Shown here: piece by piece, positions 860 through 10,440 of the stretch
Layout: every line of letters starts with the position of its first letter
Position numbering within the stretch: position 1 is the stretch's first letter
DNA from: Promethearchaeia archaeon
GTDB lineage: Archaea > Asgardarchaeota > Lokiarchaeia > Sigyniarchaeales > SOKP01
DNA: 15,236 bases
Direction of reading: 5' to 3'
NCBI GenBank assembly: GCA_029856105.1
Contig: JAHQWH010000215.1
Coordinates: forward strand, 1 to 15,236
Notes under the pieces: generated by a model
What the model was told of the DNA's origin: nothing
Seen by the model: only the letters and a program-made list of their open reading frames with translations
Database searches by the model: none
Translations under genes and position numbers: made by a program

Positions 860-2065
860 TTATAAACCAACTAAGAGTGCTACGGTCATAATTGATCCCG
901 TTATTAAAGGAACTGTAAAATTGTCATTTAAATTCATTGAAAACATCTCAACTAAAGGTGCTAAGATGCCCCCTAGAATTAAAACAATCAAAGAAATCTC
1001 TAAACTAGTATAGAGTATATATCCCATAATAAGAACGCTCCCAACATAGGCTAATGTTCCTTCTAATGTCTTATTCAATATTTTATGTCTCCCAAATGCT
1101 AAACCAAAAAGCTTTCCAAATATGTCACCGTAGATTAAAAAGCATGATGCAATGAATGCTACCTCTTTCGGAAATATCAATAATGTAATAAATAAGGCAA
1201 CAAAAAAGATGGTGAATGACGAAAATGTTTTAATTTCATTTTTCCTAAGTAAAGCTTTAACTTTTGTCTTCAATACCTCATTTGTTTTTTTATGCATCAA
1301 TCTAAAGATATCAAATGCTACCAAAACTAGAGTCACACTACCAAGTATGTATAAAGAAGGAACTTTAGTGAAAATACTATAAGATATTAAAAAAATAATC
1401 GCAAATGGTCTTATCGCAACACGCCACCAATATATCTGAAAATTCGTGTCTTCTATCTTAAATTTACCTTCTTTTAAGATATTATAAATACCAATCGTGA
1501 TAATGTGCACAAGTATGATCCAAAAAAAGAGGTTATATTGATTATCAGGGAAATTAATGTATACTGAATATCCAAGTAAGGGAAGCACTATTACACCTAA
1601 AAGATTCCCTATTTTAGAAATATAAAAAAAAAGTGCGACAAGAAGAAGTAAATAAAAAAGAAAGAAGAAAAACTCCGGTTTGATCGTGAAATAATTCACT
1701 AAATAAAAAAGAAACATTCCCATTGCAGTGGCCACTCCCTGACCGCCTCTAAATCTCAAATAGAATGGAAATACGTGACCTACGATTGTCATCAATCCAC
1801 TTAAATGAGCCACAACAACGTTAGTTCCTAAGCTTAATGTTATTAGTATAACTAACAACCCTTTAAAAATATCAAATATGGCTGTAGGGATCCCATATTT
1901 CGCCCCTAACATCTGAAATGTATTTGTTGTTCCTGCGTTTTTTGAACCAACTTCCCTTATATCGATTTTTTTTAGTCTCCCAAAAATATAGGCAGGATTA
2001 ATACTACCAAAAAAATAACCAAATAATAAACTTAATATGCTAATCATAATTTCTAAGGGTTCCAT
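860..2065 (-). CDS. plsY: PlsY-like glycerol-3-phosphate acyltransferase domain (aa ~1-200) fused to a CTP-dependent dolichol/phytol/diacylglycerol kinase-like domain (aa ~210-401); copy 1
   Basis: PlsY motifs: GYFFGSINP, DIREVGSKNAGTTN, DIFKG, GHVFPFYLRFRGGQGVAT. Kinase motifs: LRKNE, GDIFGKLFGLAFGRHKILNKTLEGT, NDNFTVP. Highly hydrophobic. TGAGG/AAGGA lies upstream of the ATG. Confidence 0.85.
   Translation of the reverse strand: MEPLEIMISILSLLFGYFFGSINPAYIFGRLKKIDIREVGSKNAGTTNTFQMLGAKYGIPTAIFDIFKGLLVILITLSLGTNVVVAHLSGLMTIVGHVFPFYLRFRGGQGVATAMGMFLFYLVNYFTIKPEFFFFLFYLLLLVALFFYISKIGNLLGVIVLPLLGYSVYINFPDNQYNLFFWIILVHIITIGIYNILKEGKFKIEDTNFQIYWWRVAIRPFAIIFLISYSIFTKVPSLYILGSVTLVLVAFDIFRLMHKKTNEVLKTKVKALLRKNEIKTFSSFTIFFVALFITLLIFPKEVAFIASCFLIYGDIFGKLFGLAFGRHKILNKTLEGTLAYVGSVLIMGYILYTSLEISLIVLILGGILAPLVEMFSMNLNDNFTVPLITGSIMTVALLVGL
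876..1003. repeat. Direct repeat copy A (3' end of fusion gene 1); partner at 2268-2395
   Basis: Manual ungapped alignment with 2268-2395 gives 6 mismatches in 128 nt. Confidence 0.9.
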
Positions 2066-2221
2066 TCCTTATCCTCAGGTTTGATTCTTTTCTTCTGTTA
2101 GTTTTTTTATAACGCATGAATATCTACATTTTAATACATATTTATCTTGTATTTAGTGATATTTAAATTTTAGTCGGATAAAAATCATAGAAAAATTACT
2201 CTGTTAAGTATAATAAAAATA

Positions 2222-2243
2222 ATAAAAAAAGAAAAAATTTTTT
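2222..2243 (-). terminator. Putative oligo-T terminator after fusion gene 2
   Basis: The minus strand reads AAAAATTTTTTCTTTTTTTAT shortly after the stop codon. A similar T-rich tract follows gene 1 (~829-850). T-tracts are common in this AT-rich DNA, so support is limited. Confidence 0.4.
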
Positions 2244-2251
2244 ACGGCTTT

Positions 2252-3460
2252 TTATAGACCAAACAATAGTGCTACTGTCATAATTGATCCCGTTATTAAA
2301 GGAACTGTAAGATTGTCATTTAGATTCATTGAAAACATTTCAACTAAAGGTGCTGAGATACCCCCTAGAATTAAAACAATCAAAGAAATCTCTAAGTTAA
2401 TATAAAGAAAGTATCCCATAATAAGGACGCTTCCCGCATATGCTAGCGTACCTTCTAAAGTTTTATCCAATATTTTATGCCTTCCAAATGCTAACCCAAA
2501 AAGCTTACCAAACGAATCTCCGAATATCAGAAACGATGAGGCTATAATCGCTACGTTTTTTTGAAATAACAATATAGTTATAAACATCGCAACTAAGAAG
2601 ATAGTCATTGACGAAAATTTTTTAAATTCGGTTTTCCTTAATAGAGCTTTAACTTTTGATGCTATTAATTCATTTGCTTGTTTACTCATAAACCTATAAA
2701 TATCAAATACTATAAAAAATAGCGCTACGATACCAATTAATTGCAATGTAGTTATTTGCGGGTAAAACACGTAAAATATTATAAACAAAATCGCGAATGG
2801 TCTTATGGCTACCCGCCACCAATGAGCCTTAAAAGTTTCTTCTTCAATCTTGATTACCTTCCCTTTTATCATATCATAAAAAGTAACAGACATATCATAA
2901 GCTATTACTATCCAAAAGAAGATATTATAAGGGCTTTCAGGATAATAAATAAAAGCAGTATATCCGAGTAAAGCAAGTACAATGAGCGCGATTATTACTC
3001 CTGTTCTAGTAATGTAAACAAAGATCACAATTATAAAAATTAAATAGCAAAAAAGAAAAATAAGCATTTCGGGACCAACAAGAATATAATTTAATAAATA
3101 AGCAAGTAAGATACCTGAAGTACAAGCCATTCCTTGACCACCGCGAAATTTAATGTAAAATGGAAAAACGTGTCCCGCAATAGCAGCTAAACCACTTAAT
3201 TGCGCGAAGACAAAATCAGCTCCCATACTCAGCGCTATGAAAATAACAACTATACCTTTAAAAAAATCAAAAATACCTGTAGGTATAGCAAATTTAAGTC
3301 CTAAATTATGATAAGTATTTACAGTGCCAGCAATACCGTCACCTTTCTCTCTTATATCGAATTTTTTTAATCTACCAAAAAAATAAGCCGGATTTATCGA
3401 ACCTATAAAATAGCCTATAATTATAACTAAAATATTTATTGTAATTGTAAAAATCTCCAT
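2252..3460 (-). CDS. plsY: PlsY-like acyltransferase fused to a CTP-dependent lipid kinase-like domain; copy 2 (tandem paralog)
   Basis: GYFIGSINP, DIREKGDGIAGTVN, DFFKG, GHVFPFYIKFRGGQG; GDSFGKLFGLAFGRHKILDKTLEGT, NDNLTVP. Collinear with copy 1 over its full length. GTGAGG RBS-like element at 3464-3469. Confidence 0.85.
   Translation of the reverse strand: MEIFTITINILVIIIGYFIGSINPAYFFGRLKKFDIREKGDGIAGTVNTYHNLGLKFAIPTGIFDFFKGIVVIFIALSMGADFVFAQLSGLAAIAGHVFPFYIKFRGGQGMACTSGILLAYLLNYILVGPEMLIFLFCYLIFIIVIFVYITRTGVIIALIVLALLGYTAFIYYPESPYNIFFWIVIAYDMSVTFYDMIKGKVIKIEEETFKAHWWRVAIRPFAILFIIFYVFYPQITTLQLIGIVALFFIVFDIYRFMSKQANELIASKVKALLRKTEFKKFSSMTIFLVAMFITILLFQKNVAIIASSFLIFGDSFGKLFGLAFGRHKILDKTLEGTLAYAGSVLIMGYFLYINLEISLIVLILGGISAPLVEMFSMNLNDNLTVPLITGSIMTVALLFGL
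2268..2395. repeat. Direct repeat copy B (3' end of fusion gene 2); partner at 876-1003
   Basis: Same alignment, offset 1392 nt. Confidence 0.9.
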
Positions 3461-5675: not shown

Positions 5676-6527
5676 TTACCAGCGGAAGGATTTAATGTCA
5701 CTTAGTTTTTTTAGCATTTCTTTTGACAGATTTAATCGGTTATAAGTTAAGTCTAAGCTCTCTAAATAACTTAAATCCCCTATTGAATCAGGTAGAGAAT
5801 CTAAACCACAGTCGAACAAATAGATTCCGGTAACGTGCTTGTTTTTAACCGTGAAGCACGGAGCTAAATGAAGATCTAATTCATCAACTAAGTAGAAGTT
5901 CTTCTTGTCGTACTCAAATAGATGGCTCTCTATTTCTAAAAGGATTTCAGCCTCCTCAGGAACCAAAACTAAAAACAAAAGCTCTTCGCTGTTAAGATAA
6001 CGAGTATAGCCTTCTTGTACCAGATATTCCACGACAGGAGGATAACCGCTTTCGAGCCGTTTGGCAATCTCTTCTTTTAAGACTTTCTTTGCTTGAGGAT
6101 CCCCGCCTTCCGCGAGTTTCTTTAGCAAGCTAAACGCTAAATTAGAATGTAATAGTCGCGTATCGTAGTTGTGTTCGTACCAAACTTGCAAGTTCGAACA
6201 GTGTCCCCAAAATTCCGTTTCGGGAGAGAGGTTATAATTAATTCCATCTATTTTTATTTGACCATCTTCATCCCATCCCAATTTGTCTGCAGCTTCGTCT
6301 ATCGAATCGAGTTCGTCGGTATCGCGGATTCTATCGATTGGAACGTTTATCAATAAGAGTTTACACGACATAAACGATTCTCCGTTAACGTAAATAATAG
6401 TATCCCTCCAGACCAATTTTACGGTTAAAAACTCGTTAACCGCGAATTCTTTTGGTTTCATCTTCGCATTCGTTTCATCTTCATTTGTTCGTAAATTATT
6501 ATAGATAGCAGTAATATTTAAATCCAT
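5676..6527 (-). CDS. Leucine-rich-repeat-associated protein of a Lokiarchaeia-type expanded family
   Basis: N-terminal domain EFAVNEFLTVKL...TIIYVNGESFMSCKLLL...EFWGHCSNLQVWYEHNYDTRLLHSNLAFSLLKKL, which I recall as recurrent in Lokiarchaeia hypothetical proteins. C-terminal LRR: LFDCGLDSLPDSIGDLSYLESLDLTYNRL. The true start may be the ATG at 6461 (MKPKEF). Confidence 0.75.
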   Translation of the reverse strand: MDLNITAIYNNLRTNEDETNAKMKPKEFAVNEFLTVKLVWRDTIIYVNGESFMSCKLLLINVPIDRIRDTDELDSIDEAADKLGWDEDGQIKIDGINYNLSPETEFWGHCSNLQVWYEHNYDTRLLHSNLAFSLLKKLAEGGDPQAKKVLKEEIAKRLESGYPPVVEYLVQEGYTRYLNSEELLFLVLVPEEAEILLEIESHLFEYDKKNFYLVDELDLHLAPCFTVKNKHVTGIYLFDCGLDSLPDSIGDLSYLESLDLTYNRLNLSKEMLKKLSDIKSFRW

Positions 6528-7990: not shown

Positions 7991-9046
7991 TTAATCTTCA
8001 ATATTTTTAAATTTAAGTAAGTTACTTGCGCTCTCATGGAAAGTTTTCTCAATATTGTAGCCAGTTAACGCAGAAATTTCGATGTAATCAAGGTCTAACG
8101 CGAGAGCGAGTCTAACCGCATCCTTCTCGCTTACAATTCTTTCTTTCACCAAATCGTTCTTATTACCAATAAGATAACCTTTAATCTTTTGATCATTTTT
8201 AAAATAATTTTTTATATCCTGATGCCATTTTGGAACATTTGCAAAAGACATTGGGTTGGTAAAATCAAACAGTAAAAGAATCATGCTCATTCCTTCATAA
8301 AACTTCTTCCTTATGATCTCAAACTTAGTTTGTCCTCCAATATCCCATAATACTAATTCAACAGAGTTTTTATCAATATCAAAGATTTTCTGAGTAATAT
8401 TTAAACCCATTGTGGGGATGTATGCCCTAAGGAATACGTTATCAGTGAATCTAAGAATTGTAGATGTCTTTCCAACGCTGGGGTCTCCTAGTACTACTAC
8501 TTTAAATTTCCTTTTTTCTAACTGCTTTTTTTCTAACTTTTTAACCTCAAGTGTTTTTTCGGAAGGTTCTTCCGGCTTAGAAACATACTCGCTTTTAGAA
8601 CATAAATAATCGGTTAAATCGCATAGCGTACGCTGTAACTTAACGATCTCCTCGTAGATTAAATCTTCTTTCGATCCATTATTCTCAAAGTCGGTAATTA
8701 CGCTAACAGCTTTGCTAACGTACGAATCAATATAACTCATATATCTGTAATAAATATGATCGTCTTTTTCATCGAATAAAAAGGTTATAGCCGACTTTGA
8801 AAAACCCCCTATTTTAGTACTATCTTCTCTTTTAAAATATTTAATCAATACTTTTAACTTTAAAGGTGAAATAGGAAAAATTAAGAGAACTTCAGGGATG
8901 AAAGTTGAATCTCCTGATATAATTGAAAAACATTCGTCACCGATAAATCTTCGGATTCCTTCAGGAAGATCGTGTGGATACCAAAAGTTAATCTTTGGCT
9001 TATCTTGGTTCAAATCAAGATAAATAATTGCGTGCGCTAATTCCAT
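7991..9046 (-). CDS. Rab-like Ras-superfamily small GTPase with a ~150-aa N-terminal (probably longin/uDENN-like) domain
   Basis: G1 GDPSVGKT, G2 YIPTMG, G3 LWDIGGQ, G4 GNKND, G5 EISAL. No C-terminal Cys prenylation motif. The fold of the N-terminal domain is inferred. Confidence 0.92.
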   Translation of the reverse strand: MELAHAIIYLDLNQDKPKINFWYPHDLPEGIRRFIGDECFSIISGDSTFIPEVLLIFPISPLKLKVLIKYFKREDSTKIGGFSKSAITFLFDEKDDHIYYRYMSYIDSYVSKAVSVITDFENNGSKEDLIYEEIVKLQRTLCDLTDYLCSKSEYVSKPEEPSEKTLEVKKLEKKQLEKRKFKVVVLGDPSVGKTSTILRFTDNVFLRAYIPTMGLNITQKIFDIDKNSVELVLWDIGGQTKFEIIRKKFYEGMSMILLLFDFTNPMSFANVPKWHQDIKNYFKNDQKIKGYLIGNKNDLVKERIVSEKDAVRLALALDLDYIEISALTGYNIEKTFHESASNLLKFKNIED

Positions 9047-9159: not shown

Positions 9160-10440
9160 TTAGTTAAGTAGAATTGGAAGGACTTGTGGTCCATTAGGCA
9201 AAATTAATATCTTTGCTTTATAGCCATGCTTATTTAAAGATTTTTTTATTGCTTCTTCGACAGTTTTTGCATGTTTTAAGCCAATGTTTCCGATCTCATT
9301 TTCTTTCATTTTAGAAACGATAAATATCTCTGCCATCATCATTATTCGGGTTAAAACTTGAGTTTCCCATTGGTCAGGTACTACGATTTCTTTGTTTAGG
9401 AGTTTTTTGTAAATCTCTTCTGGGACCATATCAGAATAAAGTAATTCTTTAAATTCCTCTTGCCCACCACCAATCCCATCAGCACATTCATTAACTGATA
9501 TTATCGTTCCGTTTTTTTTAACTGCCATTTCGCCAATTGCCATGCTTTTTACAGCTTGATATAAGCTGAGATCTAGGGGATATCCGCCATTACCACACAC
9601 AACGATGTCAAACGGTTCTTGAATTTCCTTGAAAATATGCTTAAGTTGAAAATTAACAAGTTTTTTGTGGACTCTTTCTAAATCACCTACTGCTACTTGT
9701 GTGATTTCGTGTTTTTCATTGATAGATACATTTACAACGAAATCTACGCCTACTAGTTTAGCAATCTCAGTTGAGTTTTCAGCCATTGGATTATTCTTAT
9801 AAATTCCAAAACGAGCATTAGGGGAAGCTATATTTTCCGCCGAATGGTTTGCTAAAATAGTTTCAGCACCCGCTATTCCTGGAATAATAGACTTTCTTCC
9901 TCCTGAAAAACCGAAGAAAAAGTGAGGTTCGACGTAACCCGTTAAAATTTTCAAATCGCTTTTGTAATAGTGTTTATTGATATAAATGGGAATATTGTTG
10001 ATAGTATTTCCTAAATATGTGAGAGAATTTTTATCTCTTGCGATGTGATCAACGATTTTCACCCTGCTTGTTAGATATTCCCCTAATATTCTTTCTAATT
10101 CGTCTTTACGAGATGTACGATGTAATCCTGTCGCAATTAAAACTGTAATCTTTTCTTCTTGAAGCCCATAATCGCTCAATTCTTTTAAGAGTCCCTTTAA
10201 AAGGAGATGAGATGGAACGGGACGTGTAGCGTCTGAAACTACAATGCAAACAGATTTTATTTCTTTCTTACTCTTTACAATTTTTTGTAAAGAAGGAGTT
10301 CCTATTGGATTTTTGATGGCATTTCTAATCACGGTAATTGGGTCCTCAATAACATCTTGTTTCGACGGGCGAAATATTGTCGTGTTCCAACTAGGATCGA
10401 GTGAGACTTCAATTCCACTTTTACCGTAATCAAATTTCAT
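9160..10440 (-). CDS. larA: Nickel-pincer-dependent lactate racemase (LarA family)
   Basis: VSDATRPVP, IATGLHR, VEPHFFFGFSGGRKSIIPG, NHS, GYPLDLSLYQAVK and PDQW match LarA catalytic and cofactor-binding motifs; length 426 aa is typical. Confidence 0.92.
   Translation of the reverse strand: MKFDYGKSGIEVSLDPSWNTTIFRPSKQDVIEDPITVIRNAIKNPIGTPSLQKIVKSKKEIKSVCIVVSDATRPVPSHLLLKGLLKELSDYGLQEEKITVLIATGLHRTSRKDELERILGEYLTSRVKIVDHIARDKNSLTYLGNTINNIPIYINKHYYKSDLKILTGYVEPHFFFGFSGGRKSIIPGIAGAETILANHSAENIASPNARFGIYKNNPMAENSTEIAKLVGVDFVVNVSINEKHEITQVAVGDLERVHKKLVNFQLKHIFKEIQEPFDIVVCGNGGYPLDLSLYQAVKSMAIGEMAVKKNGTIISVNECADGIGGGQEEFKELLYSDMVPEEIYKKLLNKEIVVPDQWETQVLTRIMMMAEIFIVSKMKENEIGNIGLKHAKTVEEAIKKSLNKHGYKAKILILPNGPQVLPILLN

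Follow-up and report, generated by a model that had tools for sequence, protein, structure and literature searches.

Two tandem genes of a Lokiarchaeia-type archaeon fuse a PlsY-like domain with a replaced glycerol-3-phosphate pocket to a predicted CTP-type lipid-kinase domain

Results

The PlsY-like half has the PlsY fold over its whole length

The window analysed here is the entire 15.2-kb contig JAHQWH010000215.1 (15,236 nucleotides, G+C ~30%; G000:C215 in our genome set) of a Promethearchaeia archaeon, and our subject is a pair of its genes, each of which joins an N-terminal PlsY-like domain to a C-terminal domain resembling CTP-dependent lipid kinases. Comparison of the fusions with canonical PlsY indicated that the PlsY half keeps its predicted acyl-phosphate site, while the pocket for glycerol-3-phosphate (G3P) is replaced by other conserved residues. 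We tentatively propose that the kinase half makes a lipid phosphate, probably an acyl-phosphate, and that the PlsY half acylates an acceptor not bound as G3P is.

Gene 1 (P0001, 401 amino acids; 860..2065, minus strand) was defined by its open reading frame (ORF) and translation and by full-length homologs at 100% coverage; gene 2 (P0002, 402 amino acids; 2252..3460, minus strand) encodes the same fusion. In both proteins the PlsY-fold domain spans residues 1-203 (1457..2065 in gene 1 and 2852..3460 in gene 2, minus strand), and the kinase-like domain follows at residues 207-401 in gene 1 (863..1447, minus strand) and 207-402 in gene 2 (2255..2842, minus strand). The two proteins are 62% identical end to end, in agreement with the tandem duplication named in a preliminary description of this DNA, and the kinase halves are more alike (70%) than the PlsY halves (52%). 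That description had also read the genes as joining a PlsY fold to a Dgk1/dolichol/phytol-kinase-like domain, and the PF02660 matches, the structure matches and the CTP-motif core reported below bear this out.

The N-terminal halves matched PF02660 (G3P_acyltransf; cut-off 24.1 bits) with E 5.9e-36 and 124.5 bits for P0001 and E 3.8e-29 and 102.3 bits for P0002. Neither reached the equivalog cut-off of TIGR00023 (137.2 bits), the scores being 116.2 for P0001 and 86.2 for P0002. The N-half sequence matched Aquifex PlsY 5xj5 at E 6.8e-19. In the full-length AlphaFold2 model (mean predicted local distance difference test score 79.6; predicted template-modelling score 0.73), residues 6-203 superposed on residues 0-188 of PlsY 5xj7/5xj5 with Z 13.3, a root-mean-square deviation (rmsd) of 4.0, 175-182 aligned residues and 26-27% identity. 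In this model the N-half thus has the seven-helix PlsY fold over the entire length of PlsY. The profile alignment to 5xj5 ended at residue 165 and the structure match continued to 188; the helix that carries motif 3 is therefore present, with different residues.

The acyl-phosphate site is kept and the G3P pocket is replaced

In Aquifex aeolicus PlsY, acyl-phosphate is held by the Lys104-Ala107 backbone, His92 and Thr41, with Asn37 stabilising the oxyanion, and G3P is held by Ser35, Arg45, Lys104 and Asn180, with Ser142 and His177 on its 2-OH (PMC5700162). We compared these positions, in Aquifex numbering, between 119 full-length fusions and 68 stand-alone canonical PlsY proteins. On the acyl-phosphate side, His92, Gly102, Gly103 and Gly105 were invariant in the fusions; in the canonical set the first three were invariant and Gly105 was found in 67/68. 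Ala107 was kept in 114/119 fusions, and position 41 was loosely kept as Ser, Val, Ala or Thr, preceded by an invariant Thr. Asn37, present in 68/68 canonical proteins, was Asn in 82 fusions and Ile or Val in 37.

The G3P side differed. Lys104 (Lys in 65/68 canonical proteins) was Gln in 118/119 fusions; Ser35 (Ser in 64/68) was Thr in 69, Asp in 36 and Ser in 12; and Arg45 (Arg in 49/68) was Lys in 65, Arg in 31, Gln in 12 and His in 7. In motif 3, His177 (His in 63/68) was replaced by hydrophobic residues and Asn180 (Asn in 66/68) by Val, Ile, Met or Thr. When the motif 3 alignment was shifted by one residue, position 180 became Asn in 52, Asp in 37 and Lys in 23, and position 177 became Gly or Ser, which on these residues leaves the loss of the G3P pocket unchanged as a conclusion. 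In all, five of the six G3P-contacting side chains (Ser35, Arg45, Lys104, His177 and Asn180) were replaced or variable, and the sixth, Ser142, is poorly conserved even in canonical PlsY.

In P0001 itself, His97 and a GGQG loop are present, and Gln109 stands where Aquifex has Lys104; gene 2 was placed by its PF02660 match and the same census. The fusions have newly conserved Gln109, Thr46, Tyr148 and Lys/Arg151, and position 51 is mostly basic. These new conserved residues point to a changed but constrained acceptor site and not to decay. The GGQG loop also occurs in nearly all of the bacterial fusions described below and therefore marks the whole fusion family. Compared with bacterial PlsY (PF02660, TIGR00023; 5XJ5-5XJ9, PMC5700162), the fusion proteins share the fold, His92, the GGxG 'phosphate hole' loop, a DxxKG motif and the motif 1 glycines. 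They differ in an added second domain of ~200 amino acids, Lys104 to Gln, the missing motif 3 His177/Asn180, variable Ser35/Arg45, Thr for Ala40, the new Lys/Arg151, the sub-equivalog score and archaeal hosts in which no PlsX or Fak partner was found. By its residues, then, the PlsY half is not a canonical PlsY. The preliminary description had left room for an ordinary G3P acyltransferase in the N-half, and the replaced G3P-binding side chains and the scores below the TIGR00023 cut-off argue against it.

The C-terminal half resembles CTP-dependent lipid kinases

The C-terminal half of P0001 matched PF01148 with 20.6 bits, below the cut-off of 24 (E 4.4e-4), the match ending at profile position 216 of 264, and P0002 gave no match to this family; some stand-alone kinase-like relatives also score 20-24 bits. 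The gene 2 domain is tied to that of gene 1 by their shared identity and by 341.7 bits against the A2 profile. An NCBIfam search with the C-half returned nothing relevant, its profile had no match among PDB sequences, and Foldseek with the C-half model against PDB gave nothing significant, the best entry being CdsA at E 0.8. In structure alignment with VIA-align, residues 218-400 of the full-length model matched TmCdsA (4q2e) with Z 9.8, all remaining matches lying at Z 6.7 or lower, and the C-half folded alone, compared with 48,161 chains, gave as its top two CdsA (4q2e, Z 9.3) and CarS (5guf, Z 7.4, rmsd 2.7). The 4q2e alignments cover 174-175 residues and unrelated matches reached Z <=6.8; the CdsA and CarS values are modest for a helical bundle. 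With hhalign, the C-half core aligned with E. coli CdsA residues 165-233 of 285 only (probability 54%, E 1.3e-4), so that the signature region at 234-285 was not reached.

Across 20 diverse aligned fusions, D314, G321, G325, K328, E335-G336, E373 and D381-N382 were invariant, and K332 and T333 nearly so. The motif layout is an Asp in a glycine-spaced motif, then HK, KTxEG, a Glu and a DN pair. The D177A change in yeast Dgk1 abolishes CTP-dependent diacylglycerol kinase activity (PMC2459266), and the invariant Asp of the C-half appears by alignment to be the counterpart of that Asp177. Fragments that contain the C-half alone are named 'dolichol kinase', 'diacylglycerol kinase (CTP)' or 'diacylglycerol/polyprenol kinase family protein' in JGI and NCBI records. 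From these features we predict that the C-half is a kinase-type member of the CdsA/CarS/Dgk1/dolichol/phytol kinase superfamily. Like Dgk1 (diacylglycerol kinase), Sec59/DOLK (dolichol kinase) and VTE5/FOLK/PolK (phytol and prenol kinases), it has the Asp in a glycine-spaced motif followed by KTxEG and a CdsA/CarS-related polytopic helical fold, and its alignment to CdsA does not extend into the C-terminal signature. Unlike them, it is short (~195 amino acids), scores below the PF01148 gathering threshold and is always fused to a PlsY-like domain in this clade, and its substrate may be a non-alcohol. CdsA and CarS (CDP-diacylglycerol and CDP-archaeol synthases; 4Q2E, 5GUF) share with it, besides the structural resemblance, the FGKxFGxHK...KTx(E/Q)G core, whereas the C-half alignment stops at CdsA residue 233/285 and a bona fide CarS (117.8 bits) is found at another place in this genome.

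The structural kinship with CdsA and CarS bears on a further reading, namely an ordinary PlsY (acyl-phosphate:G3P or glycerol-1-phosphate (G1P) acyltransferase) that starts ester-lipid synthesis, with a CdsA/CarS-like cytidylyltransferase as its C-half acting later in the pathway. The PF02660 scores above gathering, the label 'PlsY' given by every annotation source and the finding that bacterial PlsY takes both G1P and G3P (PMC13400652) would fit it. We nevertheless regard it as very unlikely in view of the TIGR00023 scores of both genes, the five altered G3P contacts, the unaligned CdsA C-terminal signature and the separate CarS; in addition, bacterial carriers of the fusion retain a canonical PlsY, and many complete genomes of the same archaeal family have no fusion.

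Stand-alone kinase-like genes are also present in this genome besides the fusions. One is a 246-amino-acid ORF (G000:C18:20181-20921; E 9e-7 to the C-half profile) that shares its strand with GGGPS (C18:22492-23151) and precedes it by ~1.5 kb. No PlsY gene adjoined the stand-alone kinase-like genes examined for a split form of the fusion. Elsewhere in the phylum, a distant kinase-like domain (E ~1e-16) ends a conserved open frame of ~438 amino acids in Asgard family f12 (G052, G096, G067 and others; e.g. G052:C53:12545-13081).

The fusion is restricted to one Asgard family and recurs in bacteria

We searched a sample of 201 species genomes of the Asgard phylum for fusion-type genes, defined as ORFs of ~400 amino acids with a C-half profile E <=1e-57. 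The fusion was found only in the family to which the window belongs, in 22/41 species (21 of the 40 others and this one) and in 4/8 genera, with 1 to 5 copies that often form tandem arrays. The fusion is missing from some 98-100% complete genomes within this family. A scan of GTDB species representatives returned 79 loci, ~70 of them in Promethearchaeota-type metagenome-assembled genomes (MAGs) and the remainder bacterial. Some MAGs with the fusion and near-identical synteny are labelled Hod-, Hermod-, Odin- or Thorarchaeota by their submitters (L041, L048, L049, L054, L073 and others); the taxonomy-based sample puts all Asgard carriers in one family, and the submitter names merit caution.

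WOR-3, Latescibacterota, Aminicenantes, Eubacteriales and unnamed bacteria carry these bacterial fusions, whose full-length identity is 39-51%. Among additional bacterial fusions, the neighbours include porin or spore-germination genes, and one fusion bears the label Spirochaetales. In P0243 the domains stand in reverse order, with the kinase-like half first, and P0244 carries an N-terminal extension; such reversed-order and extended fusions support a functional link between the two domains. In each of the five bacterial carrier genomes searched, the fusion is accompanied by PlsX (282-358 bits) and by a canonical stand-alone PlsY that covers the full profile at 150-181 bits. In bacteria, therefore, the fusion adds to the normal pathway and does not replace it. 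GGGPS/PcrB was present in only 2/5 of these carriers, with no consistent link to archaeal-type ether-lipid genes. Four of the five also have a third, divergent stand-alone PlsY-like gene of ~200 amino acids with a GGEG or GGKG loop and no motif 3 (L115:1784-2392, L116:3872-4465, L117:266-853 and L118:800-1408), and these genes had no kinase-like neighbour.

Other Asgard families carry stand-alone PlsY ORFs of ~220-240 amino acids with stronger Pfam scores. The best-scoring copies, where examined, keep the canonical GSGN...R, GGKG and HxxN(I/V)xR motifs (L120, L123, L124, L125 and L126, from G026, G133, G015, G199 and G054, respectively). There are often three copies per genome, and 6-11 in family f27; the stand-alone Asgard PlsY genes examined had no kinase-like neighbour. 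PF02660 also matched inside open frames of ~1000 amino acids in two other Asgard genomes (G165:C15:32925-33509 and G196:C78:59247-59777), which may be a further fusion architecture.

In a midpoint-rooted tree of the fusions, the 69 archaeal rows formed a single clade (Shimodaira-Hasegawa-like approximate likelihood ratio test (SH-aLRT) 99), with the bacterial fusions outside it. With the root placed only by midpoint, transfer from bacteria into the archaeal family would be the simpler reading. P0001 belongs to class A, with motif 1 GSKNAGTTN and the oxyanion Asn37 kept, and it fell in a five-row clade that also contains Loki_b31 and three further Promethearchaeota MAGs. P0002, whose motif 1 is GDGIAGTVN with Asp for Ser35 and Ile for Asn37, is a member of class B. 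The general class B motif is GDG[IV]AGTVN (Ser35 to Asp, Asn37 to Ile or Val), and the class is monophyletic within the archaeal clade (SH-aLRT 99).

The loss of Asn37 in class B, together with the better conservation of the kinase half between the paralogs, would suit an enzyme that is only a polyprenol, dolichol, archaeol or diacylglycerol kinase, its PlsY-like half performing no acyl transfer and serving as a lipid-phosphate binding and hand-over module or as a scaffold. The characterised relatives of the C-half all phosphorylate lipid alcohols, and, extrapolating from PMC5700162, any lipid monophosphate could fit the kept 'phosphate hole' and hydrophobic groove. We consider this account unlikely: archaeal and bacterial fusions alike show no variation at His92, in the GGxG loop or at many further PlsY positions, which suggests catalytic over structural constraint, and the genome already has stand-alone kinase-like genes, including the one near GGGPS.

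Lipid genes of the host genome

In this genome, which is 92% complete, so that a gene not found is not thereby absent, we found no match to PlsX (PF02504) or DegV/FakB (PF02645), and no GpsA, GlpK or glycerol-1-phosphate dehydrogenase (G1PDH) above the curated cut-offs. Across the phylum, PlsX was found in 0/201 Asgard genomes. Both results are consistent with the suggestion of the preliminary description that the kinase might take the place of PlsX. The only PlsY-like genes in this genome are the two in the window. Candidates for the other functions were rejected: the Fe-ADH_2 matches considered as G1PDH are ordinary iron alcohol dehydrogenases below the curated cut-offs, the best Gly3P-dehydrogenase match covers the N-terminal Rossmann part only and lies below its curated cut-off, and the best FGGY kinase match is xylulokinase-like and likewise below cut-off. 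Asgard archaea have been described as having no obvious G3P-forming enzymes (PMC13400652).

A PlsC-type gene, which the preliminary description had also named, was found. It is an ORF of ~560 amino acids with two PF01553 (PlsC-type) domains, located in this genome at G000:C10:47092-48270 and present in 38/40 family genomes whether or not they have the fusion; among these 40 genomes we found no phyletic link between the two genes.

A reversed order of reactions was also weighed. The PlsY-like half would acylate an unphosphorylated acceptor (such as glycerol or a lipid alcohol) and the kinase half would then use CTP to phosphorylate what results, turning monoacylglycerol, for instance, into lysophosphatidate, so that the need for G3P would be bypassed. 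Agreement comes from the loss of phosphate-clamp residues, chiefly Lys104 to Gln, from the absence of GpsA and GlpK matches above the curated cut-offs here along with the wider Asgard pattern (PMC13400652), and from the known action of the kinase family on the free hydroxyl of glycerolipids and prenols (PMC2459266). The scheme, however, does not explain where acyl-phosphate would come from in a lineage with no PlsX or Fak, basic residues are still conserved near the pocket, and the PlsC-like gene that could use lysophosphatidate onward is present regardless of the fusion. On balance such an order is improbable.

The contig is of Asgard type and its gene order is conserved

The contig is archaeal and of Asgard type, as the preliminary description had supposed, and not bacterial; the support consists of genes for TFIIB and a Ras-family GTPase within the window, GGGPS and CarS elsewhere in the genome, and synteny with Lokiarchaeota/Promethearchaeota MAGs. 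These MAGs share the gene-for-gene order NMO, LarA, GTPase, TFIIB, esterase, fusion, an unknown gene and ProRS.

The first 5.4 kb of the window hold four co-oriented minus-strand genes, the two fusions among them. Upstream of the fusions lies P0003 (3604..5352, minus strand; 582 amino acids), with a multi-transmembrane N-half and, by Pfam, an alpha/beta-hydrolase C-half of the esterase-lipase type (BD-FAE/Abhydrolase_3). Downstream, P0004 (3..752, minus strand; at least 250 amino acids) runs off the contig. It has no Pfam or NCBIfam match and was recognised as a conserved neighbour by synteny, a gene of 248-263 amino acids with no Pfam match occupying the equivalent place in three relatives.

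We considered the esterase as a possible member of the system and set this aside as unproven, as its occurrence does not track the fusion. It is adjacent to or near the fusion in six relatives (L020, G113, G153, G132, G150 and G192) and elsewhere in others; full-length orthologs occur in fusion-less genomes (G156, G168, G183, G186 and genus g3), and G049, G177, G129 and G180 have the fusion and no esterase.

Farther along the window, positions 5676-6527 encode a 283-amino-acid neighbour with faint leucine-rich-repeat matches only. Positions 7991-9046 encode a 351-amino-acid protein with a C-terminal Ras/Roc/Arf-type GTPase domain (E 6.4e-43) and an N-terminal extension of ~170 amino acids that has no match. 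The assignment of the 426-amino-acid ORF at 9160-10440 to LarA rests only on synteny and length. In the Asgard relatives L020-L022 the fusion has a LarA-type gene (Lar_N/LarA_C) at a distance of three to six genes, and a spore-forming bacterium has another (L035:9033-10307) directly 3' of its extended fusion P0244, which may be coincidence.

Discussion

A coupled kinase and acyltransferase as the tentative mechanism

The account that we favour, and hold tentatively, treats each gene product as one integral membrane protein whose two catalytic-looking halves would act in sequence on one lipid. The kinase half would phosphorylate a membrane lipid with CTP, most probably converting a free fatty acid to acyl-phosphate, and the PlsY-like half would transfer the acyl group to an acceptor other than G3P, or to one bound quite differently from G3P. 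The enzyme would then be a coupled accessory salvage enzyme. Its family would have arisen in bacteria and entered one Loki-type Asgard family a single time, with repeated duplication afterwards giving rise to the two classes seen in the window. Such a mechanism explains why the fusion recurs in both domain orders and why PlsX and Fak are missing in the archaeal hosts. What we observed is the architecture with its folds, the pattern of residues, the distribution and the tree; the two activities, their order, their substrates and the direction of transfer are what we infer.

The nearest functional parallel would be the FakA/FakB and PlsY route of Gram-positive bacteria, an analogue and not a relative. 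If the account holds, the logic is the same, with fatty acid converted to acyl-phosphate and passed to a PlsY-type acyltransferase, alongside PlsX where it is present (PMC10146087, PMC9136124). In contrast to the fusion, the Fak kinase has an unrelated fold of the Dak type, is soluble and ATP-using, works with a separate fatty-acid-binding protein and feeds a canonical, G3P-using PlsY.

A more specific form of the account would be a PlsX/Fak-independent enzyme in which acyl-phosphate made by a CTP-dependent fatty-acid kinase domain passes inside the membrane to a PlsY-type domain adapted to a non-G3P acceptor, for example G1P or an archaeal lipid, giving a hybrid or ester-ether product. In this form we find it doubtful. 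We also considered that the enzyme might run backwards to conserve energy, with an ester and phosphate yielding acyl-phosphate and then nucleoside triphosphate, and set this aside because of the thermodynamics of oxygen esters.

Several points weigh against the proposed mechanism. It requires a substrate class new to this kinase family. To our knowledge, no carboxylate phosphorylation is known for Dgk1, dolichol or phytol kinases, and we know of no fatty-acid kinase activity in the Dgk1/dolichol-kinase superfamily. The known substrates of these kinases are all lipid alcohols (PMC2459266, bioRxiv 10.1101/2023.07.17.549440). The sequence match of the C-half to PF01148 lies, as described, below the gathering score. 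Having lost the oxyanion Asn37, class B proteins, gene 2 included, may have an inactive PlsY half. Lys/Arg151 and the mostly basic position 51 could rebuild a phosphate clamp, in which case the acceptor might be phosphorylated, for example G1P. The bacterial carriers already have PlsX, so their acyl-phosphate supply needs no kinase half. Finally, other Asgard families have a canonical-looking stand-alone PlsY and no PlsX, and no kinase is fused to that PlsY or lies next to it, so the absence of PlsX alone does not demand a fused kinase.

An accessory role is suggested by three observations, namely that only 22/41 family species carry the fusion, that 98-100% complete genomes lack it and that the bacterial carriers keep PlsY and PlsX. 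The fusion probably came from bacteria and probably serves lipid salvage as an accessory enzyme; it is unlikely to begin the synthesis of bacterial-type membranes.

Implications for Asgard PlsY and the lipid divide

A full-text literature search found no description of the fusion. The literature on Asgard PlsY or on the kinase family that we found does not mention it, and the Asgard protein is treated there as a PlsY homolog of unknown function; databases catalogue the fusion protein as 'PlsY' only. The presence of PlsY homologs in Asgard archaea has been used to argue that ester lipids of the bacterial type were within reach of the archaeal ancestors of eukaryotes (PMC6431249, PMC6737245, PMC9385802, PMC13400652). 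The bearing on the lipid divide that the preliminary description had suggested proved weak for the fusion, which is confined to one Asgard family, is patchy within it and groups with bacterial fusions whose hosts have canonical PlsX and PlsY.

The name 'Asgard PlsY' covers at least two things: the fusion with a replaced G3P pocket in one Loki-type family, and a stand-alone protein with canonical motifs and no PlsX in others. Given the replaced pocket, the patchiness and the bacterial kinship, arguments about the lipid divide should not count the fusion as a G3P acyltransferase. The fusion also points to an uncharacterised bifunctional membrane enzyme family common to sediment bacteria and archaea.

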